Shown: in pieces, positions 11,216 to 37,694 of the stretch
Layout of the letters: the number at the start of each line of letters is the position of its first letter
How positions within the stretch are numbered: the stretch's first letter is position 1
IMG/VR virus record: IMGVR_UViG_3300025151_000016
Length of the DNA stretch: 64,000 bases
Origin: a virus
Direction: 5' to 3' (one strand)
Program-made: the position numbers and the translations under genes
The notes under the pieces: generated by a model
What the model was told of the DNA's origin: nothing
The model's input: only the letters and a program-made list of their open reading frames with translations
Database searches by the model: none

Positions 11216-11395
11216 ATGTGGGTATTGCTATGGGTACAGTTAATGGCAACACAAAATGTAAATCACTTTCATATTGGTAATTATTCAAAAGAAGTAGACT
11301 GCCAGTCGGCTATGAGTGCCGCTGCTGTTTTAGTTACTAGTAAAAATGAAAGCGTTGCTTGCTTGTACGTAGATATTAATGACATTAGAAATTAG
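11216..11395 (+). CDS. Small exported/membrane protein (59 aa, two Cys)
   Basis: Read by hand: MWVLLWVQLMATQNVNHFHIGNYSKEVDCQSAMSAAAVLVTSKNESVACLYVDINDIRN; starts right after the upstream stop. Confidence 0.7.
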   Translation: MWVLLWVQLMATQNVNHFHIGNYSKEVDCQSAMSAAAVLVTSKNESVACLYVDINDIRN

Positions 11396-12579
11396 ATAAA
11401 AGCTTCCAAAGTATTAGGAGCCTTTTCAATATTGTATGATCGAGTCTTGTTATCTTGCAAGACATACTCTGCTTCGATCATTTGCAAGTCACCACCTAAA
11501 AATCTTTTTACATTTTCTGCCATGTCCATTGCTGTCGTAACAGGCACGTTCTGACATATCATATTTAAGTTCTTTAGTCCTCCTTGTAATATAAAGTCTT
11601 TTGGCATCTTCATTATATCCAATGCTTCGCGAGTATTGATATAACGATCTTCATCGGGGTGGCATAAGGTATGAGGGAAGTGACCAACGAAAGCACCAAT
11701 ACGATCTTTTCCTATCTCAGTCATCTTTCTCATTATATTTCCACCAGCCGATAACTTATCAAACATATAGTTACACTTCTCAGAAAGCTTCTGGTGACCC
11801 CTTTCTGCCATCCAAACGCCCACATCCTTATAAGATACACCTTTATCTTCAATATAGTGTAAAGGATTAGTTGTCTTTTCAATTAGTTGAAAGAACTCAG
11901 GATGAGTAATTCCACCATGCATTTCTTCTAGTACGTATTGATAGTAAGGATTGTCCGAAGGTTTCTGTTTGCTATTCACCTGTTCAAACATTGGATCTGG
12001 TTCGTTTGTAGCAGATGAACGAATCTGATCTTCGATCTTAGTGTATGGTCGATTGTAATACGATAAGATTGGTACAGAGTTTCCTTTCCAAAAGAAATAG
12101 AATGATCTATCTCTAACCTGGCTTAATCCGTGGAGGATTGATTTGGTTTTGTAGATGGAGAAGACGTAACCGTTTCTTCTTCCGATTTCTCTAAGTTTTG
12201 CCACAACTGGTTCTCCCATTCGACTAGCGAGCCGTGGAGCATTTTCACCCCAGAACACAGTTGGTTGGATGGATTCGAGCACATACTCGGCAGACTTGAC
12301 CATCCAATCATTAGTATTACTATCACCGCTGCTAGTAGGACTAAGTGAAGAAAGCCCCGCACAAGGGCAGACAGTATTGACCACATCCACTCTGCTAGGA
12401 GCAGTGTCCCCTTTATCAAGCAGTAGATAAGGAATATTATTATTATAATAGTTAAGAAGTTGGCTATCATTTGCTGTAAAATCCGTGTAAGAGAGGATGT
12501 ATTCGGGTCGTTTCCCGAATACGTTTTCCATTGCTATTGTTTCACCTCCTATGAGAGGAACAATACTTGCATAATTCAT
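11392..12579 (-). CDS. Atypical DNA cytosine-C5 methyltransferase-like protein
   Basis: Motif IV CPCAGLS, VI WGENAP, VIII QVRDRSF, IX/X RYINTRE...QNVP; motif I degenerate (IVPLIGG); start MNYAS at 12579. Confidence 0.8.
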   Translation of the reverse strand: MNYASIVPLIGGETIAMENVFGKRPEYILSYTDFTANDSQLLNYYNNNIPYLLLDKGDTAPSRVDVVNTVCPCAGLSSLSPTSSGDSNTNDWMVKSAEYVLESIQPTVFWGENAPRLASRMGEPVVAKLREIGRRNGYVFSIYKTKSILHGLSQVRDRSFYFFWKGNSVPILSYYNRPYTKIEDQIRSSATNEPDPMFEQVNSKQKPSDNPYYQYVLEEMHGGITHPEFFQLIEKTTNPLHYIEDKGVSYKDVGVWMAERGHQKLSEKCNYMFDKLSAGGNIMRKMTEIGKDRIGAFVGHFPHTLCHPDEDRYINTREALDIMKMPKDFILQGGLKNLNMICQNVPVTTAMDMAENVKRFLGGDLQMIEAEYVLQDNKTRSYNIEKAPNTLEAFI

Positions 12580-13532
12580 TAATTCACCTTGTAATAATCT
12601 TTGTACCAAGTGACAAATTTTTCCACGCCATCAGCAATAGGTGTTGTTGGATTATAACCTAATTTCTGGAGTTTAGTCGTATCTGACCATGTGGCTGGAG
12701 TATCTGCCGGATGTGCTTCACAAGGATTACGTATTGCTGTGCGACCAAGGTTCTTTTCAATATGATCTACAAAATCAAGTAACTCTACTTGTTGTCCATA
12801 TCCGATATTATATATCTCATGATAACTATCACTATCTGTGACAACTTTATCTATCACTAGGCTTATGCCATGAACAATATCTTCAACGTAAGTAAAGTCA
12901 CGTTTCATATCACCAAAGTTATATAAGTCAATTGGTTTACCTTTTATAATATTATCAGTAAACTTAAACAGCGCCATGTCAGGTCTTCCATAAGGACCAT
13001 ACACAGTAAAGAATCGTAAGCCAGCGGTACGTTTAATTTTTGAATGACCAAACTGACATTCGTTTACTTTTTTAGACCAGCCATAAGGGTTGTTTTGATT
13101 TTCAGGTTTATCAACTTCATTCCAAGGTAACGGCTGTCCATGCATTACACATGATGATGAAGCATATACTACAGGAATATTGAGTCCTTCGACTTCCAAT
13201 GCTTCGACGATACGCTGTGTACCAGTAATGTTTGTGTCAATATAGTGCTGTGGTTCGTCCATAGCGTGACGTGGATTTGCATATGCTGCAAGGTGTAAGA
13301 CTACGTCCACGTCATCAAATAATTTCTTATCAGGATGAATGTCTTGAATATCGAGTTGTAACGTATCAACTCCATAGTCTTCTCTTAATATTCTTGCTCT
13401 TTCTCTTTTTAGTTCTACATCGTAGTAGTCATTAAAATTATCTACTCCTACTACTTGGTGTCCTCTTGCTGCATAGTATATTGCAGAGTGGAAGCCTATC
13501 ATGCCGGCTTGGCCTGTGATAAATATTTTCAT
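12579..13532 (-). CDS. NAD-dependent epimerase, UDP-glucuronate 4-epimerase type
   Basis: ITGQAGMIG, DNFNDYYDVELK, YGWSK (YxxxK), LRFFTVYGPYGRPDMA, RDFTYVEDI. Confidence 0.85.
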   Translation of the reverse strand: MKIFITGQAGMIGFHSAIYYAARGHQVVGVDNFNDYYDVELKRERARILREDYGVDTLQLDIQDIHPDKKLFDDVDVVLHLAAYANPRHAMDEPQHYIDTNITGTQRIVEALEVEGLNIPVVYASSSCVMHGQPLPWNEVDKPENQNNPYGWSKKVNECQFGHSKIKRTAGLRFFTVYGPYGRPDMALFKFTDNIIKGKPIDLYNFGDMKRDFTYVEDIVHGISLVIDKVVTDSDSYHEIYNIGYGQQVELLDFVDHIEKNLGRTAIRNPCEAHPADTPATWSDTTKLQKLGYNPTTPIADGVEKFVTWYKDYYKVN

Positions 13533-14776
13533 ACGAAAAATTCCTCGAGTCCTTGTGGTTGGTTGCTAGTAGTGTTCAAAGCGAGATCGATAATTTCTTT
13601 CACAACCATTTCTCCATCGGAGTGTTGCTTCCAAAATTCAAACGCCATCTCTCTCCAATCATCTCTCATCGCAGGATCATTTTTAAGTTTGACCATTTGG
13701 TCGCGGCACTCATTAAAGTTAGTATAGTCAACGCCTAGAGTGCCAGAGTTTTGACATTGACTAATTGGTTTACCTTGTACAGGATGAATTACATTATCAC
13801 AAAAGTGTTTGTGAAATAACGGTACTGTACCTGAAGCTATACATTCGGCGTGGCAATTTTCTATATTGTTACCATAGTGTTCTGCTTTTAAAAAGTATAA
13901 GTCAGAACCAAATGCTGACCGTGACATACGATCCATAGCTTCTGAGTTTATATATTGTGGATAAAGGTATGCACCTTTGCCTTCAACTTCTTTGCCATAC
14001 AAATCAGGTGTAAACTTAACTTCATTAAATTGTTTCTCAGGTCTGAAATGATTTTCTACAATTCTACGATCTGTAGGATTGTCTGATTTATTATCACGAT
14101 ATAAGACTAAAGGATATTGTATAGAAGCTTCTAGTCCTTCCAACACAGTGATAAATCCTTGTTCCATCAAAGCATCTTGATGGAAGTCAATCATAACACT
14201 TGGTCCTTTCCACATAGCAGTACGGCCAATCCATCTTACCATGTTGTGTTGTTGTTCTTCAATAGGACGCCAGTACTTTGCACGGTGTCCATCATAATCA
14301 AAGCCAAGTCCCATCTTTGTAAGTGGAGTTTCAATCTTGTTTTTTCTCATAAACTTACAGAAATCATTTTCCATACTATGAGTCATAATAACATCTACAT
14401 TTTCGCATACTTCTTTTAAGTTAGCATTACGTGCAATGGATGCTGCTTTATGATCTACGTTAATAAACGCTTTACGAATATTAATATGTTTAAGAAACGG
14501 AATAAAATTATCCTGGCATTCTTGAGGATGACTCTTTGAAGGTACTGAATATATGATACACAAATCAAAATATTCATTAATCCAATTGGCATTTATCTCC
14601 CATTCATTTGCCATTGAGAATTCTTTTTGCTTTATATCTAATCCTTTGGCTCTACCCCATTTTTTATCAGTAGCAGATAAGATATGAGCACCCGTTACTT
14701 TTTGCATTTGTATTGCACACTGTGTAACACCGCAACCTTCAGTGCCGCGACCAAGGACAATTGCAATTCTAGTCAT
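13529..14776 (-). CDS. DNA alpha-glucosyltransferase-like glycosyltransferase (T4 a-gt homolog)
   Basis: N-terminus RIAIVLGRGTEGCGVT resembles the T4 AGT start (MARGLEGCGVT); also HDH-like VDH, IGRTAMWKG and E..HAECIASGTVP. Confidence 0.8.
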   Translation of the reverse strand: MTRIAIVLGRGTEGCGVTQCAIQMQKVTGAHILSATDKKWGRAKGLDIKQKEFSMANEWEINANWINEYFDLCIIYSVPSKSHPQECQDNFIPFLKHINIRKAFINVDHKAASIARNANLKEVCENVDVIMTHSMENDFCKFMRKNKIETPLTKMGLGFDYDGHRAKYWRPIEEQQHNMVRWIGRTAMWKGPSVMIDFHQDALMEQGFITVLEGLEASIQYPLVLYRDNKSDNPTDRRIVENHFRPEKQFNEVKFTPDLYGKEVEGKGAYLYPQYINSEAMDRMSRSAFGSDLYFLKAEHYGNNIENCHAECIASGTVPLFHKHFCDNVIHPVQGKPISQCQNSGTLGVDYTNFNECRDQMVKLKNDPAMRDDWREMAFEFWKQHSDGEMVVKEIIDLALNTTSNQPQGLEEFFV

Positions 14777-15152
14777 TAATAAATTCCTTACATTCAATTA
14801 AAACATTATGTACGTATTTATGATCGTTTAACTTACGATTTCTAGGGGAAGGATGTGGTAAGACAAAGTGATCTTCGAAACCAAGACGTTTCAAATAGCT
14901 CGATACCATTGAACCCCATACAACTATCTTATCATAGTTTTTAAGACTTGTACATAATAAAGTGTGATCAAAAGTCTTAAATTTAAAATCCCATTCAGGA
15001 TCAAATGATAAGTTAGTGAAGGAGACATGTGTGAGGTCCAGTTGATCTAACCAGCTATGAAATCTTTTGTACGCAGATCCCTTTGCCTTACTCACTGCTA
15101 CCTTTGAAGGATTCATTCCAACAAAGATAATTCTAGACCGAAACGAATTCAT
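14769..15152 (-). CDS. Uracil-DNA-glycosylase-superfamily protein
   Basis: IIFVGMNPS (motif A) and LPHPSPRN (motif B). Confidence 0.7.
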   Translation of the reverse strand: MNSFRSRIIFVGMNPSKVAVSKAKGSAYKRFHSWLDQLDLTHVSFTNLSFDPEWDFKFKTFDHTLLCTSLKNYDKIVVWGSMVSSYLKRLGFEDHFVLPHPSPRNRKLNDHKYVHNVLIECKEFIND

Positions 15153-15600
15153 ATTCAATTCCAGCTTCTTCAAACATAGCTGAAGTTAAAGCAAATGATT
15201 CAACCCAATGCTCAGGTATTTCCTGATTAGGCATAACCACACGTTTAACACCAACTTGAATTACGCCTTTAGCGCAATCAGAACAAACAGGTAAACCCCA
15301 CACGTATAATGTAGATCCATCAAGTGATACACCATTATATGTAGCGTTGTATATTACATTCTGTTCTGCATGAACAACATACCTGTACTTAATTTTCTTG
15401 ACAGCGTATCTATTCAAATCATCTTTTATACCACGAGGAAAGCCATTGTATCCTTGAGCAAGTACCTGCCCTTTCTTTCCTATAGCAACAGCACCAATCT
15501 TAGATGACGGGTCCTTTGACCAAGTGCTTACTTCCTTTGCTAATCCTAGGTATCTTATATCCCATTTATTTGACAAGGTGAAAGTGCCTTTCATATACAT
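15133..15600 (-). CDS. cd: dCMP deaminase
   Basis: SKDPS..IGA, GYNGFPRG, HAEQN and PVCSDC zinc motifs. Confidence 0.92.
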   Translation of the reverse strand: MYMKGTFTLSNKWDIRYLGLAKEVSTWSKDPSSKIGAVAIGKKGQVLAQGYNGFPRGIKDDLNRYAVKKIKYRYVVHAEQNVIYNATYNGVSLDGSTLYVWGLPVCSDCAKGVIQVGVKRVVMPNQEIPEHWVESFALTSAMFEEAGIEYEFVSV

Positions 15601-16252
15601 GCAAGTTTTGTACTTGCCACATAATCATACCGGGTTGAAGTCCTTCATAGCTGTGGGCATGTCGATCAATTCTGTTTATGTTATCACATAGCAATGAGAG
15701 TACATGCATTTGCCAGGCATAATCATTCTTATAACCAAACACTACATCATTCGAACGCATTTGAACTACAGCGTTAAGTACATCATCACGAATGTAATAG
15801 CTCACAGCGTTTGTACATATGAAATCATTCTTTTCGTTTTCATTGTATTCTAGCCAGACAGAAGGACGATTGTATACCATTGTAGCTCTACGTCCATCAG
15901 GATTTTCAATTAACTCATCAAGGACATGACCATACTGTTGGTGGTACTTATCAGACCAGATAAGATGACCATAGTTTGAATTAATTTCACCGTGTTTATT
16001 TGCTGCGTATTGCCAAGCTTGTGGAACACTTTCACCAATATCATTTACGTTTGTGGATTGACTTTCATACCAATCTAATTCTTCTTGAATATAATCATAG
16101 TTTGGCGAACCAAAGATAGCAGGCTCATCAGCAACAAACGATGCACCAATCAGTTCAATAGTTTTTTGACCGGTTCTATCGATTGTAAATGCTTCATCAT
16201 TGAGTTCACCAATAAAGAACTGGCGAATATCATGTACACTATGTAGTTTCAT
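15566..16252 (-). CDS. gp42: dCMP hydroxymethyltransferase (T4 gp42-like)
   Basis: Thymidylate-synthase fold: INSNYG, DFICTN (catalytic Cys), MRSNDVVFGYKNDYAW with the dCMP-selecting Asp, LHVYERHF. Confidence 0.88.
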   Translation of the reverse strand: MKLHSVHDIRQFFIGELNDEAFTIDRTGQKTIELIGASFVADEPAIFGSPNYDYIQEELDWYESQSTNVNDIGESVPQAWQYAANKHGEINSNYGHLIWSDKYHQQYGHVLDELIENPDGRRATMVYNRPSVWLEYNENEKNDFICTNAVSYYIRDDVLNAVVQMRSNDVVFGYKNDYAWQMHVLSLLCDNINRIDRHAHSYEGLQPGMIMWQVQNLHVYERHFHLVK

Positions 16253-16592
16253 TTTTTACTCGCTTTGGACGATTTAGAAAGTCACGATCAGGATCTTGGC
16301 CATCAATACCATTATTCATATATGCAGCAAAGAATGAAGCATAGTTAATAATATCAATGCATGAATCTTCGAGGCTTTCAAAGTTTGGTTCGTAATTTGG
16401 ATCAGATTCCATTGCTTCGAGTACTGATTGCATGCGTAACACTTTTGCATACATTGTATCAAGAAGAGTTGAACAACCTCTAGGGTAATACATTGCTTGT
16501 TGTATTCTAGAGCTTGGGTTCTGGTAATCATTACCTTTTCTGTTTTGTACTTCTGCAGCTTTCTGCAAAACTTTAAGTGATTCTTTACTCAT
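16239..16592 (-). CDS. Nucleotide-modification-associated domain 1 (DUF1599/Nmad1-like)
   Basis: RKGNDY...KVLR...ESLEDSCIDIINYASF pattern; adjacent to gp42. Confidence 0.75.
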   Translation of the reverse strand: MSKESLKVLQKAAEVQNRKGNDYQNPSSRIQQAMYYPRGCSTLLDTMYAKVLRMQSVLEAMESDPNYEPNFESLEDSCIDIINYASFFAAYMNNGIDGQDPDRDFLNRPKRVKNETT

Positions 16593-17162
16593 TTATCTTG
16601 TACCTCTACCACGTATTTCACGGTTAACCTTAGGGCGAAAATGCTTGATGGAAGCACCTTCAATATACTCAGCCATGCCATCAATATTGAATTGACTAGT
16701 ATTAATATATTTTATAACAATTTCTAAAGATTGTAAACCATTTTCTGTGAGAAACTCTCTAAATTTTCTACCAGATGATTCACTAATTACACTATCATCT
16801 AGAAAACTTCTTAGATGATTACCTTGGCGGCTATTGATGCTTGCAGATGGAGCGTCTGTTTTACCAATATAAAGTGTATAAGGTCCTAATGTAACAAACC
16901 AACCGTATACACCTTTTGCTTTGCTTGCTGCAAAAGGAGCCGGTCCTCTTTGACCAGGAATTCTTTCAAGCTTCTTAGGAACTTCTAAAAATTCATAATC
17001 AAAATCTACATATGGAAGAGATTTGCCGGCAAAATCTGGTAGATCTCTTGGAGGCATATTCTTTTTATGTAAACGTATTTTTCCATAAACTTCAGCCTCA
17101 TCCCATAATTTTTTAATATCAATCGAACTAAGCATTGATGCTAAATTATTTAATATAGACAT
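16593..17162 (-). CDS. GIY-YIG endonuclease (EndoII/DenA-like)
   Basis: GVYGW...LYIGKT...SRQGNH...IEGASIKHFRPKVN; start MSILNN at 17162 (TAATG). Confidence 0.7.
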   Translation of the reverse strand: MSILNNLASMLSSIDIKKLWDEAEVYGKIRLHKKNMPPRDLPDFAGKSLPYVDFDYEFLEVPKKLERIPGQRGPAPFAASKAKGVYGWFVTLGPYTLYIGKTDAPSASINSRQGNHLRSFLDDSVISESSGRKFREFLTENGLQSLEIVIKYINTSQFNIDGMAEYIEGASIKHFRPKVNREIRGRGTR

Positions 17163-17440
17163 TATCTGTAATCCCGAATGTATACGTCCCAATGCGTTGC
17201 ATTTTCTTTTGGCGTATCTTTTGCCCAACGATGTAAACGTGGACCACGTGGTCTGCACCATACACCTTGTGTAGGACGATCACGATTAATATCAAAGTAT
17301 GGGGATTTGCGATAGTTCTTGATGAAGCTGTTGCGATAAGCAAGTAGTTCTTTAAGTCCAGCAATAGCAGGATCATCAAGAGTTTTAACCGTAAAACGAT
17401 AATTTTCGGATGTACGATTTTTATAAGTTACATAAGCCAT
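17162..17440 (-). CDS. Hypothetical basic protein
   Basis: Coupled ORF in an early operon. Confidence 0.65.
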   Translation of the reverse strand: MAYVTYKNRTSENYRFTVKTLDDPAIAGLKELLAYRNSFIKNYRKSPYFDINRDRPTQGVWCRPRGPRLHRWAKDTPKENATHWDVYIRDYR

Positions 17441-17643
17441 TATGATGCCTCCAGTAACTTTTCAAATTCTATTTCATTTGCTTTTTCTTCACGCTCAACA
17501 TTCTTTTCAAGATCTTCACAAATATCGAGCAACTCAATAATTATTTGAGTACGGGCCATTTGTTGGTTGAATGCTCTACGAGCGAGACTAGACAATTTCT
17601 TTTTCATTGTCATTGCGTCTTGTATATCACGAACTATAATCAT
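17440..17643 (-). CDS. Hypothetical protein
   Basis: AGGAG RBS; first gene behind an early promoter. Confidence 0.7.
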   Translation of the reverse strand: MIIVRDIQDAMTMKKKLSSLARRAFNQQMARTQIIIELLDICEDLEKNVEREEKANEIEFEKLLEAS

Positions 17644-17668
17644 AGTATCTCCTTCATTTATAGATACT

Positions 17669-17728
17669 ATTCTACCACAGTTAAAACCAAATGTAAACCT
17701 TTTTGTTTCGTTTTAAAACAATAACTTA
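17669..17728 (-). promoter_or_regulatory. Early promoter TTTACA-17-TAGAAT with IHF-like site; heads the DNA-modification operon
   Basis: -10 at 17669-17674, -35 at 17692-17697, AAACAA-TAAC-TTA at 17716-17728. Confidence 0.8.
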
Positions 17729-18199
17729 GAATTTTGTTAAGAATTGTGCTATTCTTCCTACAAATGGTAACAGCATAAGTGCCATCATAAGATTCATACC
17801 AGTATGTGCCATAGCTATTCGTAAGGTATCACCTTTTGGCCAGCCATCAGATACAAAGATACCGGCTAACCATATGGTTCCAGTAGTTCCAATGTTAGCT
17901 CCTAACACAGCAGCAACTGCGGCTGGTAGCGGTAAGGCGCCTGAAGCAACTAACGCAATGATTGCAGTAGTTGATAATGAAGACGATTGCCACAAGAGTG
18001 TCATTACTATTCCACCAATAAACATGTATATCGGATTACCTAAAAAGAATTGTAAGTGGTCCATGTTACCCATTGACTTCATACCACCTGAGAATGTTTT
18101 AAGTCCAATGTAAAATATTACTAAGCCAACTAAAGCAGTTATTACGGGATTTCCTAGATCCATTTTCTTTACCTTCTTCCAAAGTTTTTTATTCGACAT
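17726..18199 (-). CDS. Na+/Pi cotransporter family protein (single repeat)
   Basis: LLWQSSSLST and LGANIGTT signatures; hydrophobic. Confidence 0.85.
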   Translation of the reverse strand: MSNKKLWKKVKKMDLGNPVITALVGLVIFYIGLKTFSGGMKSMGNMDHLQFFLGNPIYMFIGGIVMTLLWQSSSLSTTAIIALVASGALPLPAAVAAVLGANIGTTGTIWLAGIFVSDGWPKGDTLRIAMAHTGMNLMMALMLLPFVGRIAQFLTKF

Positions 18200-18200
18200 A

Positions 18201-18614
18201 TTACAAACCTTTATCTAATTCCCCATGATTATCTTCATGGTTCGGTCCTACCCATCCATCAGGCTTCAATAGATCTGGTAGACCAAATGGATTAGGACGT
18301 CCTGGTTTTACGCCAACCTGTTTATTCATATTGGCTTTATATATCTCGTCCCAAGCTTTACTTGCATCAACATTGAATACATCAAGTGTACCGATAGCAA
18401 AAACACATAGATCAATCAAGCCATCTACAATTTCTTCTGAATTACCAGAGTTGGCAGCTTGCATAGTTTCATGTAATTCTTCTTGACACATAAGCAAACG
18501 GAACATAAGGTACTTGTTCATAAGTACTTTATCATCTTTATTCTTTTCAAACCATTCATTGACACCATACTTCTTATGCATGTCTGCCATGTCTTGTACC
18601 CAATTAGTACTCAT
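18201..18614 (-). CDS. MazG-like / PRA-PH-like NTP pyrophosphohydrolase
   Basis: QEELHE...EEIVDGLIDL...ANMNK...DLLKPDGW. Confidence 0.85.
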   Translation of the reverse strand: MSTNWVQDMADMHKKYGVNEWFEKNKDDKVLMNKYLMFRLLMCQEELHETMQAANSGNSEEIVDGLIDLCVFAIGTLDVFNVDASKAWDEIYKANMNKQVGVKPGRPNPFGLPDLLKPDGWVGPNHEDNHGELDKGL

Positions 18615-18638
18615 ACTTTACCCTTTATTGTTTTGTAC

Positions 18639-18667
18639 ATTATATCACCTTTTGCATAGTAAGTAAA
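18639..18667 (-). promoter_or_regulatory. Early promoter TTTACT-17-TATAAT overlapping the gap 3' end
   Basis: -35 at 18662-18667, -10 at 18639-18644. Confidence 0.7.
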
Positions 18668-19626
18668 CCTTTCATGTAGTTTGCAACATCAGCCATTCTA
18701 CAACTAAATGCCCATTCGTTATCATACCAGGCTAATACTCTAACTAAATTATTATTTGATACTCGTGTTTGTTCTGGTGCAAAAATACAACTTTCTTTTG
18801 TTGTATTAAAATCACTGCTTACGAGTGGCAATGGCTCGTAGCCAATAATGCCAGACATATCATTACGTGTGCTTTCATATACATGTTTATTAACAATGCT
18901 TTCAGTAACTTGTTCTTTAACTTGTACTGTTAAATCAATGCAACTTACATTTGGCGTAGGTACTCTTATTGCTCCGCCCATTATTTTACCATTGACAGGA
19001 GGATAAACTTCTCCTAGTGCCTTTGTTGCTCCTGTGCTTGTTGGAATCATATTGACAGCACCTGCTCTTGCTCTATAAGGATCTTTGTGCCTTTTATCTA
19101 TAGTGCTTTGGTCTCCGGTGTAACTATGTATTGTTGTCATTTGTCCTGCTACAATACCACAGGTTTCATCTAATATTTTAACAAGTGGCGCTAAACAGTT
19201 TGTTGTACAACTTGCATTGCTAACAACGTGTTCGTGCTTCTGTATGTCATTATGGTTCACACCATATACTACTGTGCGTTTACATTCTTTAGCAGGCGCA
19301 CTTATGACAACTTTCTTTGCTCCATTTATTGTATGATGCATGCATTCAACACCGTTATTGTAAGCACCCGTACATTCTAATACAACATCAACATTATGCC
19401 ACTTTAGTTTTTTTATATCTCTTTCTTCTGTCCATACCAAAGGTTCATGTATAGGACCTGTGTAACGCCCATGCACACTATCATACTTTAACAAGTGAAG
19501 GTTTACTTCTTCTCCACCTGAAGCATTGATTTGAACTACATTCATATCATTACGTTGGCTCATTATGTGTCTTGCAACACAACGTCCTATACGACCGAAG
19601 CCATTGATACCTATATTAAGTTTCAT
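18640..19626 (-). CDS. gap: Glyceraldehyde-3-phosphate dehydrogenase (type I)
   Basis: GINGFGRIGR, SNASCTTNCLAP catalytic motif, HSYTGDQ, WYDNEW. Confidence 0.95.
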   Translation of the reverse strand: MKLNIGINGFGRIGRCVARHIMSQRNDMNVVQINASGGEEVNLHLLKYDSVHGRYTGPIHEPLVWTEERDIKKLKWHNVDVVLECTGAYNNGVECMHHTINGAKKVVISAPAKECKRTVVYGVNHNDIQKHEHVVSNASCTTNCLAPLVKILDETCGIVAGQMTTIHSYTGDQSTIDKRHKDPYRARAGAVNMIPTSTGATKALGEVYPPVNGKIMGGAIRVPTPNVSCIDLTVQVKEQVTESIVNKHVYESTRNDMSGIIGYEPLPLVSSDFNTTKESCIFAPEQTRVSNNNLVRVLAWYDNEWAFSCRMADVANYMKGLLTMQKVI

Positions 19627-20296
19627 TTATTTTTGGATATATTGCGCTAATTGCTTTAGCTATTACTGTGGCCAGTTCCATATGTTCTTTTTGTGTCCCG
19701 TTTGCAGAACGTAACTCGATATAATGAATCCAGCTACGAATGGTGCCATTAACATAAAGCTTAGAAACTGTGTTCCCTTCTGGCAAGATTGCTCTTGCCT
19801 GTTCTTTTGCGATTCCTCGTTCGAGTGCTTCATTGTAGATCCTCTTTACATGTTCGATTACAAACTTTTGTTGAGCATCCCACCAAGCTTCAAGTGCTGG
19901 ATCGGTTGCTTCAATACTATTCTGACGATTCTTTTCGTCCTGTAGTCGTGCTTCTCTTAAAACAAAATCATTATTAAGATCATTGATGCTAGCATACCGC
20001 TGAGAAAACTCTTGAAATGAAAACGATCTGTGCCTGAGGAACTGCCTTGCGATGTCTCTTGTCGTTGTGACTTCGACACAGCAGCTTGCCATTTCGAATG
20101 GTGACCAGTGCTTGTGCTTGATGAGGTAGTCAAGTAACTTTCTCGTTGTTTTGGTGTTAGCCTGGTTCGATGGATTGGAGACACGGGCGCAATACGCGAT
20201 GAGGTCTTGCGTGTTGTCGAGGCCCATGATACCGAGTTCACCGGAGTGTATGTGCCGAACAGGTTGTGAGTATGAGATGAGACGTGCATGCGTCAA
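19616..20296 (-). CDS. thyX: Flavin-dependent thymidylate synthase
   Basis: HWSPFE, RHRSFSFQEFSQRY, TQKEH. Confidence 0.95.
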   Translation of the reverse strand: MTHARLISYSQPVRHIHSGELGIMGLDNTQDLIAYCARVSNPSNQANTKTTRKLLDYLIKHKHWSPFEMASCCVEVTTTRDIARQFLRHRSFSFQEFSQRYASINDLNNDFVLREARLQDEKNRQNSIEATDPALEAWWDAQQKFVIEHVKRIYNEALERGIAKEQARAILPEGNTVSKLYVNGTIRSWIHYIELRSANGTQKEHMELATVIAKAISAIYPKINET

Positions 20297-23001: not shown

Positions 23002-24047
23002 TATTCTGCCTCAACAATAGTATCTGGATCTACCAGTGCTTTATGACCAATTGAATACTGCTTCTTAATAAACTCGCTGAACGCTGTTGTTTCAAAGATA
23101 GGATCCCAAAACTCTTTTTCTAGAGTTTGATCATATCGTACTTTACCAAACTCTTGGCCATCAGGACCATTAGCTTGTTGATACCAACCAGCCGAAGGTT
23201 TAGTAACATATCCACCAGCAAGAGCTACGTCAAGAAGACCGCTGTAACTTTGAACTCCACCTTCCCAAGATACGGAGATAGGAATCTTTGATTTTTCTTT
23301 TACATAACGAGACTTATCAACATTAATTACAAAGTCATAGCCTGTAATCTCTGTACCCTTTTTATTTTGCCTACGTCCAATGATCCAAATGTTATCGGCT
23401 GAGTAGTAGATACCTGTTCCACCACCTACGATATCTTTTGGAAATAATCCTATTTCTTTATAAGTATGATTAACTGCTATTAAAGGAATATCCTTCATAG
23501 TCAAGTAAGGTGTTACCATACGGAACAAACCTTTGAGTGCTTTTGCTCTTGACATATCAGCCACAGACTTTTCATTCAATGCATCTTCAAGTTCTTTCTT
23601 CGATGCAAGGTTACCAATACTATCAATAACAATAACAACTCGATCATTGCGATCAAGTTCTTCGAGTTGACCAACAAGATCAAACTTTAGTTCTTCTACA
23701 TTTGCAATAGGTGTATGCAATACACGCTGTACATCAATATCAAATTGTTCAAAGTAAGATTGTGGTGAACCAAACTCAGAATCATAAAATAGCATGACTG
23801 CATCAGGATACTTTTTCATGTATGCGCTAGCCATGAGTAAACCAAAAGAAGTCTTAAAGTGTTTTGACGGACCAGCCAATACTGTAAGGCCTGGAGTTAA
23901 CCCACCGTCAACTGAACCAGATAAAGCAACGTTTACCATTGGTACATCTGTTGGAACCATATCTTTTTCAGTAAAGAACTTTGATTCGCCAAGAACTTCG
24001 GTAGACTTAATCTTCGAGTTCTTTTTTAATTTATCCATAATTGACAT
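23001..24047 (-). CDS. uvsX: RecA-like recombinase UvsX
   Basis: AGPSKHFKT, FYDSEFG, IDSIGNLASKKE, GGGTGIYYSAD. Confidence 0.95.
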   Translation of the reverse strand: MSIMDKLKKNSKIKSTEVLGESKFFTEKDMVPTDVPMVNVALSGSVDGGLTPGLTVLAGPSKHFKTSFGLLMASAYMKKYPDAVMLFYDSEFGSPQSYFEQFDIDVQRVLHTPIANVEELKFDLVGQLEELDRNDRVVIVIDSIGNLASKKELEDALNEKSVADMSRAKALKGLFRMVTPYLTMKDIPLIAVNHTYKEIGLFPKDIVGGGTGIYYSADNIWIIGRRQNKKGTEITGYDFVINVDKSRYVKEKSKIPISVSWEGGVQSYSGLLDVALAGGYVTKPSAGWYQQANGPDGQEFGKVRYDQTLEKEFWDPIFETTAFSEFIKKQYSIGHKALVDPDTIVEAE

Positions 24048-24834
24048 TTTGTTCTCTTTCTCTATCGTCTAATTCGTAACATTTGCGATACTCATTGTTT
24101 ATTCTAATACATTTTTCAATAATTGTAAACCCCTTATCGAAATTTACTAGAGCTGCAGTGTCCTTTGGAAAGCATGCGCCACCATATCCTTGCTTACCAT
24201 CTGGCCCAGGAACTTTAGTATGCGAATGTCCAATACGTGAATCAGTACCAATAGCTTTTACGACCTTATTAAATGTTTGTCCTTGACGAGCAATTGAATC
24301 ATATAACTGATTGAAGAATGTAACCTTTAATGCTAAGAAAGAATTTATGCCATACTTTACAAAGCTGGCTTCTTTCGGAGTCATCTTATATACAGGACAT
24401 GGTGTACATAGGCTATACTCATCATAAATCTTTTCTAAGAAATTAGTGTTTACTTCGTTTCCACCAAAGACATGAAACTCTGGACGAATAAAATCTTCGT
24501 TAGCAGCTTTTTCTGTAAGAAACTCTGGATTGTAAATGAGATTATATTTTTCAAACTTATCAAAGAAAGTAGGAACGACGGTTGACTTTATTACGATAGG
24601 AATATTAGGACCAAGCGCAAGAACAACTTCAGTTAAAATAGAATCGTCAATAGATCCATCTTCACCAAACGGCGTAGGCACACAAACAAATGCAACACTG
24701 TACTTTGTAATATCAAGTTCATGTACACTATTTCCATACTTTGGATCTACAATATACTTTTGTAACTTAGGATGATTAAATCCATAGTCTACAGCTTTAC
24801 CAACAAACCCATGGCCTACAATTATCATCTTCAT
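24031..24834 (-). CDS. ugd: UDP-glucose 6-dehydrogenase (short form)
   Basis: Start MKMIIVGHGFVG at 24834; CVPTP, IKSTV, YNPEFL, GYGGACFPKD. Confidence 0.85.
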   Translation of the reverse strand: MKMIIVGHGFVGKAVDYGFNHPKLQKYIVDPKYGNSVHELDITKYSVAFVCVPTPFGEDGSIDDSILTEVVLALGPNIPIVIKSTVVPTFFDKFEKYNLIYNPEFLTEKAANEDFIRPEFHVFGGNEVNTNFLEKIYDEYSLCTPCPVYKMTPKEASFVKYGINSFLALKVTFFNQLYDSIARQGQTFNKVVKAIGTDSRIGHSHTKVPGPDGKQGYGGACFPKDTAALVNFDKGFTIIEKCIRINNEYRKCYELDDREREQNVNYG

Positions 24835-24835
24835 A

Positions 24836-25264
24836 TTACGCCCCTTCATTTTGTGCCACTCGTCTACGTAGATCACTACTACTAAATCTATGTTCACGCT
24901 TATTAAAATATAAACGAATACCTTTACGACGACATACTTCTTTACCAGTAAAATCTTTGTTCTTGTATTCTTCACCCATGATTTTTACATTTATGTCAAA
25001 CATTTCTAATATGTCAATCACGTCATTTTCACCTTGATAACAAACTATCTCATCAACGTATTTTACACCAGCCAATTGAACATAACGTTCTACCAATGTT
25101 TGTACTGGTGCATTCTTATCATCTCTGTCAAGAGAAGGATCTACCTGTAGACCACATATAAGATAATCACAAATAGTTTTAGCTTCACGTAACATTGCTA
25201 CATGACCAGCATGTAATAAATCAAATGTAGATAATGTTAAGCCAATTGTTTTAGTAGATTCCAT
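24836..25264 (-). CDS. Cytidylyltransferase (TagD-like)
   Basis: TFDLLHAGH (HxGH) and RFSSSDLR. Confidence 0.85.
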   Translation of the reverse strand: MESTKTIGLTLSTFDLLHAGHVAMLREAKTICDYLICGLQVDPSLDRDDKNAPVQTLVERYVQLAGVKYVDEIVCYQGENDVIDILEMFDINVKIMGEEYKNKDFTGKEVCRRKGIRLYFNKREHRFSSSDLRRRVAQNEGA

Positions 25265-25941
25265 GTTTCTTCCCATGTTTTAACTTGATGTACGCCTTGT
25301 CCAGCTGAGGCAAGAGCCCAAGATAGTTTATAGTCATTGCCACCCGGTTCCATTTTGTCACCAAAGAATTCAATACGATCATTTTCTAAATCAAAGTCAC
25401 GTGTTATTTGTGACTTGTCACAGCCAGGTAATGTAATATCGATTCCAGTATCACCTGCAACTTCAAATAATATATGTGGGTATCTTTCTTGCATTGTAGT
25501 TGCAATCTGTACGCGTTCACTTTGATGATAATCCCATTCTTTGTACATAGCTCTTTCTTCAAGCGTATTGTTTCTTCCTAGGATACTAAAGTTTACAAGA
25601 CCAGGACGTTGATCAAAATGCATACCAGTTTTGCAGGGAAACTTTGATTTGAGTATATAATCTCTTAGATCAAACTCTACGTCTAAAGGTAGTGCAAAAA
25701 TTCCAGAATGCAAGTTCTTATCCTGTCGCCAAACATCGTTTCCTGAACAATTATAAACCTTTTCACATAGATTGTAAATAGTAGATCCTATTTGTTCTAA
25801 TGTTTTTTTCCTATCTGAACCAGTAACTAGATAGCACGTATTGTTCGTAGCAAAATCCTCGAACCATTTTGCAAATACAGAATCTATTTTCATTCTGCTT
25901 TCTGTTAAAGTACCATCCACATCAAATATAAACTTACGCAT
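25237..25941 (-). CDS. HAD-IIB phosphomannomutase-like protein
   Basis: FDVDGTLT, LVTGSD, FFGDKMEPGGND; start MRKF at 25941. Confidence 0.85.
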   Translation of the reverse strand: MRKFIFDVDGTLTESRMKIDSVFAKWFEDFATNNTCYLVTGSDRKKTLEQIGSTIYNLCEKVYNCSGNDVWRQDKNLHSGIFALPLDVEFDLRDYILKSKFPCKTGMHFDQRPGLVNFSILGRNNTLEERAMYKEWDYHQSERVQIATTMQERYPHILFEVAGDTGIDITLPGCDKSQITRDFDLENDRIEFFGDKMEPGGNDYKLSWALASAGQGVHQVKTWEETWNLLKQLA

Positions 25942-26275
25942 AACCAACTGTCTCTCTCTGTATATCGTTATGATTAAACTCTGCCCAATACAATTCAAAG
26001 GCAACACCATCTTTTAAACATTCAAATTGATGATAAACACCGGGCTTGACTTTTGTGTATTCACCTGGTTCTAGTATTGTTTCATCAACCAAGTCATAAT
26101 CATTTTGCCATACACGAATAAGCATACGACCAGACTCAACATAGAATCCATTCCATTTAAACTCGTGTAGATGTTTGGAGCAAACACCACCTTTATTCAT
26201 TTCAATTCTATGAAACTCAAGAACACCATTCATTTCAATCTGTTCTGTAAGTCCCCATACTTTACCTGCTTTCAT
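25934..26275 (-). CDS. Cupin (sugar isomerase-like)
   Basis: KVWG, CSKHLH..KWNGFYVESG, VKPGVYHQF. Confidence 0.8.
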   Translation of the reverse strand: MKAGKVWGLTEQIEMNGVLEFHRIEMNKGGVCSKHLHEFKWNGFYVESGRMLIRVWQNDYDLVDETILEPGEYTKVKPGVYHQFECLKDGVAFELYWAEFNHNDIQRETVGYA

Positions 26276-26933
26276 GCCATTTCCTTGCATCTTCTGGAGT
26301 GTTAATTTCTATTCCATTCCATTCTACACTAGTTACGCCGATTTGTACACCATTTTTTAACCATCGTAGTTGTTCTAGTTGTTCGATCTCTTCTTCTTTT
26401 TCTATTGGAAGTCTTGGATACAACTCTAACATATTTCTTTTATAACCATATACACCTAGGTGCCAATCTCCGTATCCTGTTATGCCTCTCCCAAACCAAA
26501 GTGCTTGATCTCCAGCTCTAATCATTTTTACTGAGTGAGGATCATTCTGCTTATCTTTTGGCATAGGTGTCCATACGGTTGTCACCTCATAATTTTTTAA
26601 ATGCCAATGAACATTGTTTATTATTTCTGGTGTAACGTCTGGCATGTCACCTTGTACATTTATATATTGATCATAGTCTAGTTTTTCTAAGGCAGCTCCA
26701 GCACACCGCTCGGTTCCATTACTGAATTCTCTGTTGTCATATATCACGTGCTTGAGTGGAACTGCATGTGCAACAGATCTATGATCAGTGAGTACATACG
26801 TATCAAATCCAGACTTAACGCAAGCATCGTAAACTCTACGAATCATTGTCGTTCCACCAAGATTACATATAGGCTTACCTGGAAATCTACTTGATTCGTA
26901 TCGAGCAGGAATTAATATCGCTGTGGTCGTCAA
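26262..26933 (-). CDS. kdsB: CMP-Kdo synthetase
   Basis: IPARYESSRFPGKP, NGTERC, INVQGD, HLGVYGY, EQLEQLRWL. Confidence 0.92.
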   Translation of the reverse strand: MTTTAILIPARYESSRFPGKPICNLGGTTMIRRVYDACVKSGFDTYVLTDHRSVAHAVPLKHVIYDNREFSNGTERCAGAALEKLDYDQYINVQGDMPDVTPEIINNVHWHLKNYEVTTVWTPMPKDKQNDPHSVKMIRAGDQALWFGRGITGYGDWHLGVYGYKRNMLELYPRLPIEKEEEIEQLEQLRWLKNGVQIGVTSVEWNGIEINTPEDARKWHESR

Positions 26934-28114
26934 ATTAAACTCTCTAAAATTTCTAATACCTGTTTACTATTATCTTCTACACCAATGTCAATAGCACTCT
27001 TTACGCATGTTCTTGTAAAATCTAAGCTGAATCTGTTGCCGTTGCTATCCATCCCTGTGTTTATTAAATATACGTTACATACTTCATTCGTTATTTTATC
27101 CATAAGCAAATCACTATAAACTTTAACTGATCTTGGCATAAACGGTGATCCGTAACAAGGAGAGAATATTTTCTTTATCTCATCGCTGCCAGCTTCTGTT
27201 CCAGGCATTTGACTTGTGTAACCAGTTTCAAAGAAGCGTCTAACCGTATTACCACTTATTTTACTTACAGGTGGAAACCGACCTGTTGCATCCATAGTTA
27301 AGAAGAATATATTATCAGGATGACCGAACTGATCCTGATCAGTCCAGGCATTGCTAACACAATCTATAGAATAACTTAATCTTGCGTTCGCAGCTCCAGG
27401 ATTTTCTACTACAAGAGTATCTCGTTTCTTTGCTTCTTCAACAGCATTAAAAATAGTTGGGTGAGTCTCTTGAGTTAATCCTTCTGATTTAGCATAACAA
27501 CCGGTTTCTATAATACGAATGCCTTTATCGTTCCATGACACTTCATCATCAGATATAAGACGAAACTCTGGATCACTACTTAACGTTGTTTTACCTGTGC
27601 CGCTTAATCCAAACATAAGGTTTGTTTTATCTTCATAAGTAAAAGCTGCACAATGCATAGGAAGAATGTTTTGATCTGGTAGTTCAAATCCTAAGATACT
27701 AAACACACCTTTTTTAATCTCACCAAGAAACGTAGTACCACCAATAAGCATTGTCTTTTCATCTAAGTGCACAGCAATAGTAGGTTGGCATTTTATTTCT
27801 GTATTATGAATGATAGTCCAGTCTGCGCAATGTTCGTACGGATTATCTACAACAGTAAACATATTACGTACAAACTGTGCATGTCTATCATCATTTGTTT
27901 CTACACGAAAACAAAAACCTGATGTATAGAAAACAAGATTATGCTCTGTATCATACTCATTTATATCTTCAAAGAACTCCCAGTAATTGAGATCTTTACC
28001 GATCTTGTTATACTTAGGTCGTGTTAGATCTAAATGCTTAGTTCTATTTCCAAAGTGTACTTTATTTTCAGGAGAACGACCGGTTGGTTCAGTTGTTATT
28101 TCTATATTGGGCAT
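26930..28114 (-). CDS. pckA: Phosphoenolpyruvate carboxykinase (ATP), shortened
   Basis: TGRSP, GEIKK, PMHC, FGLSGTGKTTLS, DDE, GCYAK, FSPCYGSPF, YLINTG. Confidence 0.88.
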   Translation of the reverse strand: MPNIEITTEPTGRSPENKVHFGNRTKHLDLTRPKYNKIGKDLNYWEFFEDINEYDTEHNLVFYTSGFCFRVETNDDRHAQFVRNMFTVVDNPYEHCADWTIIHNTEIKCQPTIAVHLDEKTMLIGGTTFLGEIKKGVFSILGFELPDQNILPMHCAAFTYEDKTNLMFGLSGTGKTTLSSDPEFRLISDDEVSWNDKGIRIIETGCYAKSEGLTQETHPTIFNAVEEAKKRDTLVVENPGAANARLSYSIDCVSNAWTDQDQFGHPDNIFFLTMDATGRFPPVSKISGNTVRRFFETGYTSQMPGTEAGSDEIKKIFSPCYGSPFMPRSVKVYSDLLMDKITNEVCNVYLINTGMDSNGNRFSLDFTRTCVKSAIDIGVEDNSKQVLEILESLI

Positions 28115-28883
28115 AACTAAATTCCATTATGTTTTCTACTAAGTTGTCAAAATCAGAAAGCTTTAACATGTTTGGTCCATCAGATGGTGCACTGTCTGGA
28201 TCTGCATGCACTTCTATAAAAAAGCTAGAAATGCCGAGAGCAGCACCAGCCCGAGCAAGATGAGGCACGTACTTGCGATTTCCACCAGTCGAGGTTCCTT
28301 GACTACCTGGTGTTTGTACTGAATGAGTAATATCGTAAACAAATCTATCACCAAGATCAGCAAGTAAATCATACATGCCAGTGAAATCATTAACAAGACG
28401 TCCGTAACCAAAGCTTGTTCCTCTTTCTGTTATCCAGACTTCTTCGGCTCTTTTAGTCTTAGATAATATTCCTTTTACGTCCCATGGTGCCATAAACTGG
28501 CCTTTTTTAATATTTATGATTTTTTCAGTTTTACATGCTTCTACAATCAAATCAGTTTGCCTGCATAGGAAAGCTGGTATCTGTAATACATCAACAGCAC
28601 TATTACTTCCTTGATAAGCTAAAGATCTAATTTGATCTACAGTATGAACATCTGTAAGAATCTTTAGACCCGATATCTCATTTTTAAGATCTATAAATGC
28701 ATGATTAGTTGGATATAAACCCAATCCTCTTTCACCATCTATCGATGTTCTATTAGCTTTATCAAAGCTAGCTTTAAAGAAATATTCCACACCATACTTA
28801 TCGCAAACTTGTTTACAATGTTCTGCTATTTCTCCTGATCTGCCTATACTCTCATGTTGGCAGGGTCCTGCAATAATTCTCAT
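28089..28883 (-). CDS. kdsA: Kdo-8-phosphate synthase
   Basis: IAGPC, KASFDKANRTS, QIPAFLCRQTDL, KKGQF, ERG, SDGPN. Confidence 0.95.
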   Translation of the reverse strand: MRIIAGPCQHESIGRSGEIAEHCKQVCDKYGVEYFFKASFDKANRTSIDGERGLGLYPTNHAFIDLKNEISGLKILTDVHTVDQIRSLAYQGSNSAVDVLQIPAFLCRQTDLIVEACKTEKIINIKKGQFMAPWDVKGILSKTKRAEEVWITERGTSFGYGRLVNDFTGMYDLLADLGDRFVYDITHSVQTPGSQGTSTGGNRKYVPHLARAGAALGISSFFIEVHADPDSAPSDGPNMLKLSDFDNLVENIMEFSYAQYRNNN

Positions 28884-32428: not shown

Positions 32429-32860
32429 TTATAGTTCACTCAACAATGTTTTAAGTTTCTTTTTGCTTTTGCCTCTGACTTTTGCTTTGCTAACATCGTT
32501 CATTGGCACTTCACCGCCTTCAGCTACCATCACTACTCCAAGCATACCCATTGTTGCGTGCGGTGTACAAACATACACATACACACCTGGTACATCGAAG
32601 GTAATGCTAACTTCTTTGTTGTTCTTACTTTTTCTTGGAATGTCCCATCCATCTGGTCCTGCAACAAATTCTACGTTGTGTCCTTTAGATGTTGGTACCC
32701 ACGTGATTGTGTCACCTACGTCAATAGCGACAACATCTTCGCTGTACACCATCTTAGCACCATCGTCACGTTTATTTAACATTTCGATTGTTACGTCTGC
32801 CGCGAATGCTGGAACAGACAATGAAGCCATAACGGCTACTGTAGATAAAAGTTTCTTCAT
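32429..32860 (-). CDS. paz: Pseudoazurin (type I blue copper protein) with signal peptide
   Basis: IEMLN, GDTITW, GHNV, YVCTPHATMGM (His/Cys/His/Met copper ligands). Confidence 0.88.
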   Translation of the reverse strand: MKKLLSTVAVMASLSVPAFAADVTIEMLNKRDDGAKMVYSEDVVAIDVGDTITWVPTSKGHNVEFVAGPDGWDIPRKSKNNKEVSITFDVPGVYVYVCTPHATMGMLGVVMVAEGGEVPMNDVSKAKVRGKSKKKLKTLLSEL

Positions 32861-37007: not shown

Positions 37008-37694
37008 TTAATCTTTGTAGGTTGAGGACTTTTCGAGGGCTACCCAATACTTTAAGTCCATATCATCTGAAGTACTGGTGAACTGTGATATAAGCTTCGA
37101 TGATATTTCCACTTTATAATCAGATGGAATCATACGAAGGTTACTAATATTTAAAATGAATTTAAAGTCTTCTGACTTGTATTCTCCATCAACATCAATA
37201 GAGTATGTATTCGATGTACTGTTAGTTGTATCTACAACTGTAAGTGTAACTACACCATTTGAACCAGTAATCGATACCTCGCTGTGGCCAAGTGCCGAAG
37301 CAGCACGTTTCAGGTTGGCAAGTGTTGTTTGATCCAAAGTAAAAGTAACTTCGGGATCTGGCATATTAATTGGTTTACTTGGAGACGTAAGCATTTCTGT
37401 ATCTGAAAAGAAATACTTAATCTTTGCTCTACCTGACGTATCACCAATTGTAGCAAATTGATCGTCAAGTTTTAGGTTAGCGGCATCAAATAAATTTACA
37501 ACCGATAAGAATTCTGGTAGATCGTATATGCCAAACGTACGATCAAATTCTTCCGGCACAGTTGCCTGAGCAAGAATATTCTTAGCTTCAGACATAGTCA
37601 TAACAGACTTCCCTGGATGAATCACTAAGTTAGGATTAATCGAAGAGAAGTTCTTCAAAGTTTGCATAGTAAAGCTGGATAGTTCCATAATCAA
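37008..37694 (-). CDS. gp45: Sliding clamp (gp45)
   Basis: LKNFSSIN, FGIYDL, YWVALE. Confidence 0.93.
   Translation of the reverse strand: MIMELSSFTMQTLKNFSSINPNLVIHPGKSVMTMSEAKNILAQATVPEEFDRTFGIYDLPEFLSVVNLFDAANLKLDDQFATIGDTSGRAKIKYFFSDTEMLTSPSKPINMPDPEVTFTLDQTTLANLKRAASALGHSEVSITGSNGVVTLTVVDTTNSTSNTYSIDVDGEYKSEDFKFILNISNLRMIPSDYKVEISSKLISQFTSTSDDMDLKYWVALEKSSTYKD

Follow-up and report, generated by a model that had tools for sequence, protein, structure and literature searches.

Which sugar does a T4-like phage put on its DNA when its homolog of the T4 alpha-glucosyltransferase is encoded back to back with an epimerase? The question is raised by the viral record IMGVR_UViG_3300025151_000016, of which a stretch of 64,000 nucleotides, called here the window, was analysed. 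A sequence-only reading of it had proposed that an operon containing a dCMP hydroxymethylase (gp42), a DNA alpha-glycosyltransferase of the T4 family (AGT) and this epimerase adds a non-glucose sugar, probably a uronic acid, to 5-hydroxymethylcytosine (hmC). The conserved hmC glycosylation cassette of this uncultured marine T4-like phage is real. The sugar is a prediction, for which gene adjacency, a tree test, an epimerase subtype and controls give comparative support, and we put at about 0.6 the probability that the DNA carries a uronic acid on hmC, as alpha-galacturonosyl- (or glucuronosyl-) hmC. The window comes from the genome of a T4-like phage, with genes for DNA polymerase, gp41, uvsX, the clamp, the clamp loader, head and tail, all on the minus strand, and T4 late promoters precede the structural genes. 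Its relatives are uncultured, mostly aquatic viral contigs. A scan of genome contigs for a host matched three contigs of metagenome-assembled genomes, which look like mis-binned phage, so that no host was assigned.

The evidence that carries the uronic acid reading is the linkage of AGT and epimerase. In all, 80 loci were fetched by their AGT, 79 of them with flanking sequence. The epimerase is the next gene after AGT in 79/79 of these AGT-clade loci, with an overlap or near overlap, and in 65 of 72 a UDP-glucose dehydrogenase gene (Ugd) comes directly after the epimerase. Most often the genes run gp42, deaminase, AGT, epimerase, Ugd, methyltransferase-like gene, uvsX. A survey of the co-occurrence of gp42, AGT, epimerase and Ugd in phage genomes had been suggested with the sequence-only reading; these counts bear out the association, except that Ugd is also kept without the transferase. 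Because many of the loci are close kin, the linkage was tested against the backbone, with 31 thinned loci labelled as having AGT or another transferase, and 500 shuffles. The label changed once on the epimerase tree (support 100, 0/500 shuffles), 6 times on the uvsX tree (208/500 shuffles) and 5 times on the Ugd tree (48/500). We conclude that AGT and epimerase move as a unit between backbones, and that Ugd does not. As for controls, the T4-like AGTs of related phages (with H114, YQL and EYTH) have the epimerase in 0 of 38 non-redundant cases, nearly all of them lying directly before the methyltransferase-like gene, and epimerase and Ugd are both absent from two complete genomes that encode AGT and gp42. 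Where the epimerase family occurs without AGT, it is found near TAGT or near a 363-aa family resembling glycosyltransferases (GT). In the complete relative G002, neither a GT2, GT4 or TAGT-type gene, as a rival consumer, nor a TET/JBP oxygenase with a GT-A TAGT was found.

The best solved relatives of the epimerase are 5u4q (E 1e-71) and 6zl6 (E 5e-40), both of which we take to be UDP-glucuronate (UDP-GlcA) 4-epimerases, while GalE is matched only at about 1e-17. The UDP-glucuronate 4-epimerase signatures seen in the sequence-only reading were thus well taken, as was the overlap with the AGT stop. The catalytic Ser, Tyr and Lys are kept. In the B. cereus enzyme (6zl6), the carboxylate is bound at T126, S127, S128, T178 and R185 (PMC7984243, PMC12338863); the window protein has S, S, C, T and R there, four of the five being kept or conservative. 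With 5u4q, 6zl6 and MoeE5 (6kv9) it has in common the fold family, YxxxK, S/T126, S127, T178, R185 and R88, but it differs by S128 to C, G86 to N and V87 to P, and its activity is a prediction. These residues favour a uronate substrate and leave room for a changed one. The AGT-linked epimerases form a subtype: 60/60 carry ANPR, SSSCVMH and GMIG, a set present in 0/16 of those linked to other transferases, which carry AGVR, STSC and GFI (16/16).

An AGT-linked epimerase of changed specificity could instead lead to another non-glucose sugar on hmC, namely galactose, a pentose after decarboxylation, or an N-acetylated uronic acid. The three substitutions are fixed in the AGT-linked subtype, those at G86 and V87 in the substrate loop, and in the B. 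cereus enzyme weakened binding of the carboxylate shifts the reaction toward UDP-xylose (PMC12338863). The epimerase and GT pairs of Pyle et al. gave hexose and N-acetylhexosamine as well as hexuronic acid (HexA) (10.1101/2023.12.21.572611), and in our tree test Ugd is not tied to AGT. However, R185, T178 and the catalytic residues are kept, matches to GalE and WbpP-type enzymes fall some 50 orders of magnitude short of that to the closest UDP-GlcA epimerase, and the dehydrogenase that follows the epimerase in most loci best matches UDP-glucose dehydrogenases. We regard this alternative as unlikely, but as one to be taken seriously.

The transferase itself was correctly recognised beforehand as an alpha-glucosyltransferase homolog, with E values of 4e-33 to PF11440 and 3e-44 to T4 AGT structures (about 30% identity). 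It keeps the T4 core residues G15, D115, H116, R204, K209, Y275, E306, H309 and E311, of which R204, K209, E306, E311, D115 and H116 make up the UDP- and sugar-binding core of retaining GT-B enzymes. Four changes from T4 near the donor site, H114V, Q292D, Y307N and T308C, are fixed clade-wide. Since the nearest sister AGTs, which have no epimerase, share most of the donor-site changes, the sequence does not name the donor. H114V, S117K, GSDLY and ENCHAE were each considered as donor-diagnostic and rejected as proof, all of them recurring in AGTs without epimerase. Position 114 is variable whereas H116 is near invariant, and H114V is therefore no sign that a conserved His was lost. The AGT tree is a quick tree, with long branches for T4, S-TIM5 and L210. 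Among GenBank isolates none has an AGT above about 31% identity to that of the window, and a literature search found no paper on AGT donor residues. Close AGT sisters also lie in large, differently organised viral genomes (L242, L246, L252, L260, L254), the searched fragments of which gave no match to gp42; L254 retains epimerase and Ugd. At its C-terminus AGT ends in LEEFFV and the methyltransferase-like protein in LEAFI, and the LEDFFA of the polymerase is alike. Because of these clamp-like ends, and because T4 AGT binds the gp45 clamp (PMC13216743), both proteins probably act on DNA at the fork.

Ugd was rightly read as a UDP-glucose dehydrogenase: its best matches are such enzymes, and the NAD-binding and central domains with the catalytic Cys, Lys, Asn and Asp are present. 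As evidence for the sugar it is weaker than the sequence-only reading made it, being truncated and a lineage-wide neighbour of uvsX; in the window's lineage it lies 10 kb from the epimerase, still next to uvsX. The short Ugd is a conserved viral form of 262-319 aa, and no test of it was found in the literature. In the window it opens a sugar and carbon cluster (24031-28883) with a cytidylyltransferase, a HAD-IIB hydrolase, a cupin, a KdsB-like protein, PEP carboxykinase and a KdsA-like protein, genes that are patchy among relatives. Kdo on cytosine is known from contig 94 of Pyle et al. (10.1101/2023.12.21.572611).

This cluster bears on a second alternative, in which the phage makes ordinary T4-type alpha-glucosyl-hmC, while epimerase and Ugd have an auxiliary role in glycans of the host envelope or the virion and lie by chance in a DNA-metabolism region. 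Ugd, KdsA, KdsB and the cytidylyltransferase do form a sugar cluster, AGT keeps the T4 core residues, AGT sisters without epimerase exist, and phage C48C1 keeps epimerase and Ugd 14 kb from a TET cluster, with no AGT or gp42. As a counterexample to the coupling, C48C1 was judged ambiguous, because TET/JBP, a relative of the 363-aa family and a UDP-galactopyranose mutase are encoded elsewhere in its genome. Chance placement accords poorly with the 79/79 adjacency, with the way in which AGT and an epimerase subtype of its own travel together against the backbone, with the absence of the epimerase beside all T4-like AGTs, and with the lack of GT2, GT4 or TAGT in the complete relative. Plain glucose is thus, in our judgement, quite improbable.

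Several observations nevertheless weigh against a uronic acid donor. No AGT residue separates the epimerase-linked enzymes from their nearest sisters, and L218, L219, L249, L262, L215 and L242-260 have most of the GSDLY and E[NY]CHAE changes with no epimerase. Relative to the enzymes that have been characterised, the epimerase has Cys for S128, Asn for G86 and Pro for V87, for which reason its substrate may differ. Ugd lacks the C-terminal UDP-binding domain PF03720, does not co-diverge with AGT, is kept in phages that have unrelated cassettes without this transferase or epimerase, and has further sugar genes (KdsA, KdsB) around it in the window. Genes may stay tightly linked by descent with no coupling between them, and there are only about 2 label changes on the AGT tree. 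Finally, replacement of cytosine may be partial, since the complete relatives have no gp56 or gp1 family member: no match to PF08761 or PF21448, sought for gp56 dCTPase and gp1 dNMP kinase, was found in them.

The supply of hmC is well marked. The gp42-type protein, named as a dCMP hydroxymethylase from the outset, matches the T4 enzyme 1b49 at E 4e-73, against 8e-7 for thymidylate synthases (TS), and it keeps the TS fold, the catalytic Cys and the Asp of RSNDVVFGYKND at the dCMP-specificity position. Its closeness to T4 gp42 favours hmdCMP as the product, rather than 5-methyl or 5-hydroxy dCMP. The dCMP deaminase, the separate thyX and the MazG-like pyrophosphatase (MazG/PRA-PH) of the sequence-only reading are all present (Table 1). 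From these parts a uronic acid route can be drawn. By homology, gp42 would convert dCMP to hmdCMP, which would be phosphorylated and built into DNA (no gp1 homolog was found in the complete relatives), and the MazG-like enzyme may lower dCTP. Ugd or the host would supply UDP-glucuronate, and the epimerase, whose family is established, would convert it to UDP-galacturonate. AGT, presumably docked on the gp45 clamp by its C-terminal motif, would then act as a retaining enzyme and place the uronic acid on the hydroxymethyl group, an acceptor that is well supported, the donor being predicted. The expected product is alpha-galacturonosyl-hmC or, less likely, glucuronosyl-hmC, with a nucleoside mass of 433.

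The methyltransferase-like protein has the C5-methyltransferase fold that had been noticed, with the catalytic PC and motifs VI, VIII, IX and X. Motif I (FxGxG, for SAM binding) is absent, PLIGG standing in its place in 133/135 homologs. The gene accompanies gp42 across sugar cassettes, in 56 of 58 loci with upstream flank; a count of 64/64 was biased by the way loci were fetched, and a gp42-anchored search shows gp42 without it. Epimerase loci without gp42 do not have it, nor do some of the other gp42 cassettes. Its top match in both sequence and fold is CmoX, a cytosine C5-carboxymethyltransferase that makes an anionic cytosine mark in a marine phage (PMC12783734), but identity is only 16%, and identification as CmoX was rejected, N344 (HhaI N304) being an invariant Asn where CmoX has Arg350. 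We weakly infer that the protein methylates cytosines that escaped replacement. A two-step or multi-layer scheme, in which AGT adds glucose that the truncated Ugd oxidises on DNA, or in which the protein with altered motif I acts on hmC instead of methylating C, could draw on the size of the 120 closest Ugd relatives (all 265-290 aa, without PF03720) and on the fixed PLIGG and uneven distribution of the methyltransferase-like gene, but is very improbable, as Ugd has neither a DNA-binding part nor a clamp motif, the 4-epimerase needs a UDP-linked substrate, and the motif-X Asn is kept, unlike in CmoX.

Between the deaminase and the methyltransferase-like gene lies a slot whose content is swappable. 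It may hold AGT alone, or AGT or the 363-aa family together with epimerase and Ugd; TAGT and an inositol-phosphate-synthase kit also occur there, as does the 363-aa family accompanied by UDP-galactopyranose mutase. This family (phrog_14998, no Pfam match) replaces AGT before the epimerase in the gp42 operons of L123 (8911-10002), L128, L137, L143, L162, L167 and L208. In contigs L168-L173 and L175, together with gp42, and in the deposited isolate C48C1 (OQ984149, 49583-53030), together with TET/JBP, it neighbours UDP-galactopyranose mutase and a distant epimerase, and a galactofuranosyl base is possible in these. Epimerase and Ugd accompany TAGT, in some cases with an extra GT4 and with no gp42 or methyltransferase-like gene nearby, in L129-L136, L138-L140 and L144, an architecture that resembles the HexA-making one of Pyle et al. 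Two loci, L309 (7980-9973) and L310 (7986-10905), have a T4-like AGT followed by Ugd without uronate epimerase, L310 having a different SDR, and are candidates for glucuronosyl-hmC. In L196 (6236-10004), L184, L186, L201, L204, L348, L349 and L362 the slot holds a myo-inositol-1-phosphate synthase-like gene, an open reading frame (ORF) of 130-140 aa, a protein with the 5-hmdU DNA kinase helical domain (PF18723) and a 326-aa protein, then the methyltransferase-like gene where the flank allows; a cyclitol modification of hmC is possible. Finally, L350-L361, L364, L374-L376 and L385 are gp42 cassettes with neither AGT nor the methyltransferase-like gene, one having a PLP-enzyme-like gene (weak PF00291) and several Ugd beside uvsX. 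We give even odds to the broadest form of our proposal: that in a widespread lineage of marine T4-like phages much of the cytosine is exchanged ahead of replication and then capped with alpha-galacturonic acid by a donor-switched AGT-family enzyme, as one allele of a slot that otherwise serves glucose, galactofuranose or inositol-linked modifications. Such an enzyme would be the first AGT with a non-glucose sugar, and the phages would have an anionic sugar coat over the whole genome.

Around these genes the layout is that of a tightly coupled string, as had been read: the minus strand carries every gene that was named, and between 17643 and 11392 ten ORFs touch or overlap one another, at spacings of 0 to -35 nt. 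The early promoter said to head the string is a joint-best match in the window (10/12 with TG), but sites of this kind, taken overall, show no excess (33 vs 32+-6). The proposed GIY-YIG nuclease has Atlas look-alikes (PF01541 on 25% of their members) but no Pfam match, and no match in any of the 80 related loci, for which reason we consider it a passenger and not part of the module. The genes read as Nmad1-like and UDG-like are there, both with weak family matches, and the latter is optional among relatives. Elsewhere in the window, auxiliary genes at 17726-19626 and 32429-32860 encode a short Na/Pi cotransporter, GAPDH and a blue copper protein, and two adjacent ORFs of equal length (853 aa) with similar N-termini, at 56803-59364 and 59367-61928, are probably paralogous tail proteins.

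Table 1. Features of the cassette and associated genes in the window; likely true (corrected) starts are used for the GIY-YIG-like, UDG-like, AGT and methyltransferase-like genes.
Feature	Position	Strand	Remarks
C5-cytosine methyltransferase-fold protein, 395 aa	11392-12579	-	PC, ENA, QxRxR, QNV motifs; motif I PLIGG; ends LEAFI
UDP-glucuronate 4-epimerase-type SDR, AGT-linked subtype	12579-13532	-	4-nt overlap with AGT stop
DNA alpha-glycosyltransferase, T4 AGT family, 415 aa	13529-14776	-	PF11440; C-terminal clamp-binding-like motif LEEFFV
Small UDG-superfamily-like protein	14769-15152	-	PF03167 below cut-off, E 1.6e-4; weak
dCMP deaminase	15133-15600	-	PF00383
dCMP 5-hydroxymethylase (T4 gp42 ortholog)	15566-16252	-	E 4e-73 to 1b49; Cys148 and Asp179 equivalents kept
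Nmad1/DUF1599-like protein	16239-16592	-	PF07659 weak, E 0.005; usual gp42 neighbour
GIY-YIG-like nuclease, 189 aa	16593-17162	-	Atlas look-alikes 0.94; passenger insertion
Two small ORFs, 67 and 92 aa	17162-17643	-	Outside conserved module
Promoter-like site, early/sigma70-type (GTTTACA-17-TG-TAGAAT)	17669-17698	-	Heads string; consensus match only
MazG/PRA-PH-type pyrophosphatase, candidate dCTPase	18201-18614	-	
thyX	19616-20296	-	Supplies dTMP apart from TS-fold gene
Short UDP-glucose 6-dehydrogenase (Ugd), 267 aa	24031-24834	-	No C-terminal domain; catalytic Cys motif GGACFPKD kept
gp45 sliding clamp	37008-37694	-	Predicted docking partner of AGT and methyltransferase-like protein

If the uronic acid reading is true, the T4 AGT family is not confined to glucose, and an abundant marine phage group (278 protein clusters at E<=1e-10) has an anionic sugar on its DNA. 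This would matter for the recognition of these genomes by restriction enzymes and hmC-sugar glycosylases, and for their amplification and sequencing; it would also provide a retaining enzyme for placing a carboxylate handle on hmC. Nature supplies matched pairs on the same backbone, in which AGT occurs either with the epimerase or alone, and with these the published E. coli platform could test the donor switch directly.

The cassette shares with the T-even glucosyl-hmC system (T4 gp42, cd, gp56, gp1 and alpha-gt) a gp42 ortholog, a dCMP deaminase and a retaining AGT-family transferase that keeps the core and probably docks on the clamp. It differs from it by the distance of its AGT and the donor-site changes given above, by the coupled epimerase and Ugd, the methyltransferase-like gene and thyX, which are extra, and by the missing gp56 and gp1 families in complete relatives. 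Homologs of the methyltransferase-like protein, 33% identical, are found in cyanophage S-TIM5, which reportedly methylates all cytosines after purines, and in Pseudoalteromonas phage XG4. S-TIM5 has in addition an AGT homolog and, near the methyltransferase-like gene, a TS-fold gene with Asp at the specificity position (L081, 8769-9605 and 11989-13206; L087, 6754-8034), and XG4 a gp42-like gene with two GT-like genes; neither has such a Ugd. Sugar acids on phage bases have precedents, since SP-15 carries glucuronic acid on thymine (PMC12686479). The sequence-only reading knew of no uronic acid on cytosine, yet the epimerase and GT of contig 57 and the GT of contig 91 of Pyle et al. gave 5-HexA-mC, 433 Da, in E. 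coli (10.1101/2023.12.21.572611). Our literature search, which left most subscription papers outside, found no paper joining gp42, AGT, epimerase and Ugd. With this subclass II (contigs 57 and 91), the window has in common the pairing of transferase and epimerase and the predicted product. GT57, however, is a GT-A enzyme that acts after a C5-methyltransferase and TET, at GpC-type sites in Burke et al. (PMC8256090), whereas the window would use a GT-B AGT on hmC made before replication. The base chemistry and the logic of coupling a GT to an epimerase are thus published, and what would be new here is an AGT-family enzyme with a non-glucose donor, on the pre-replicative gp42 route.

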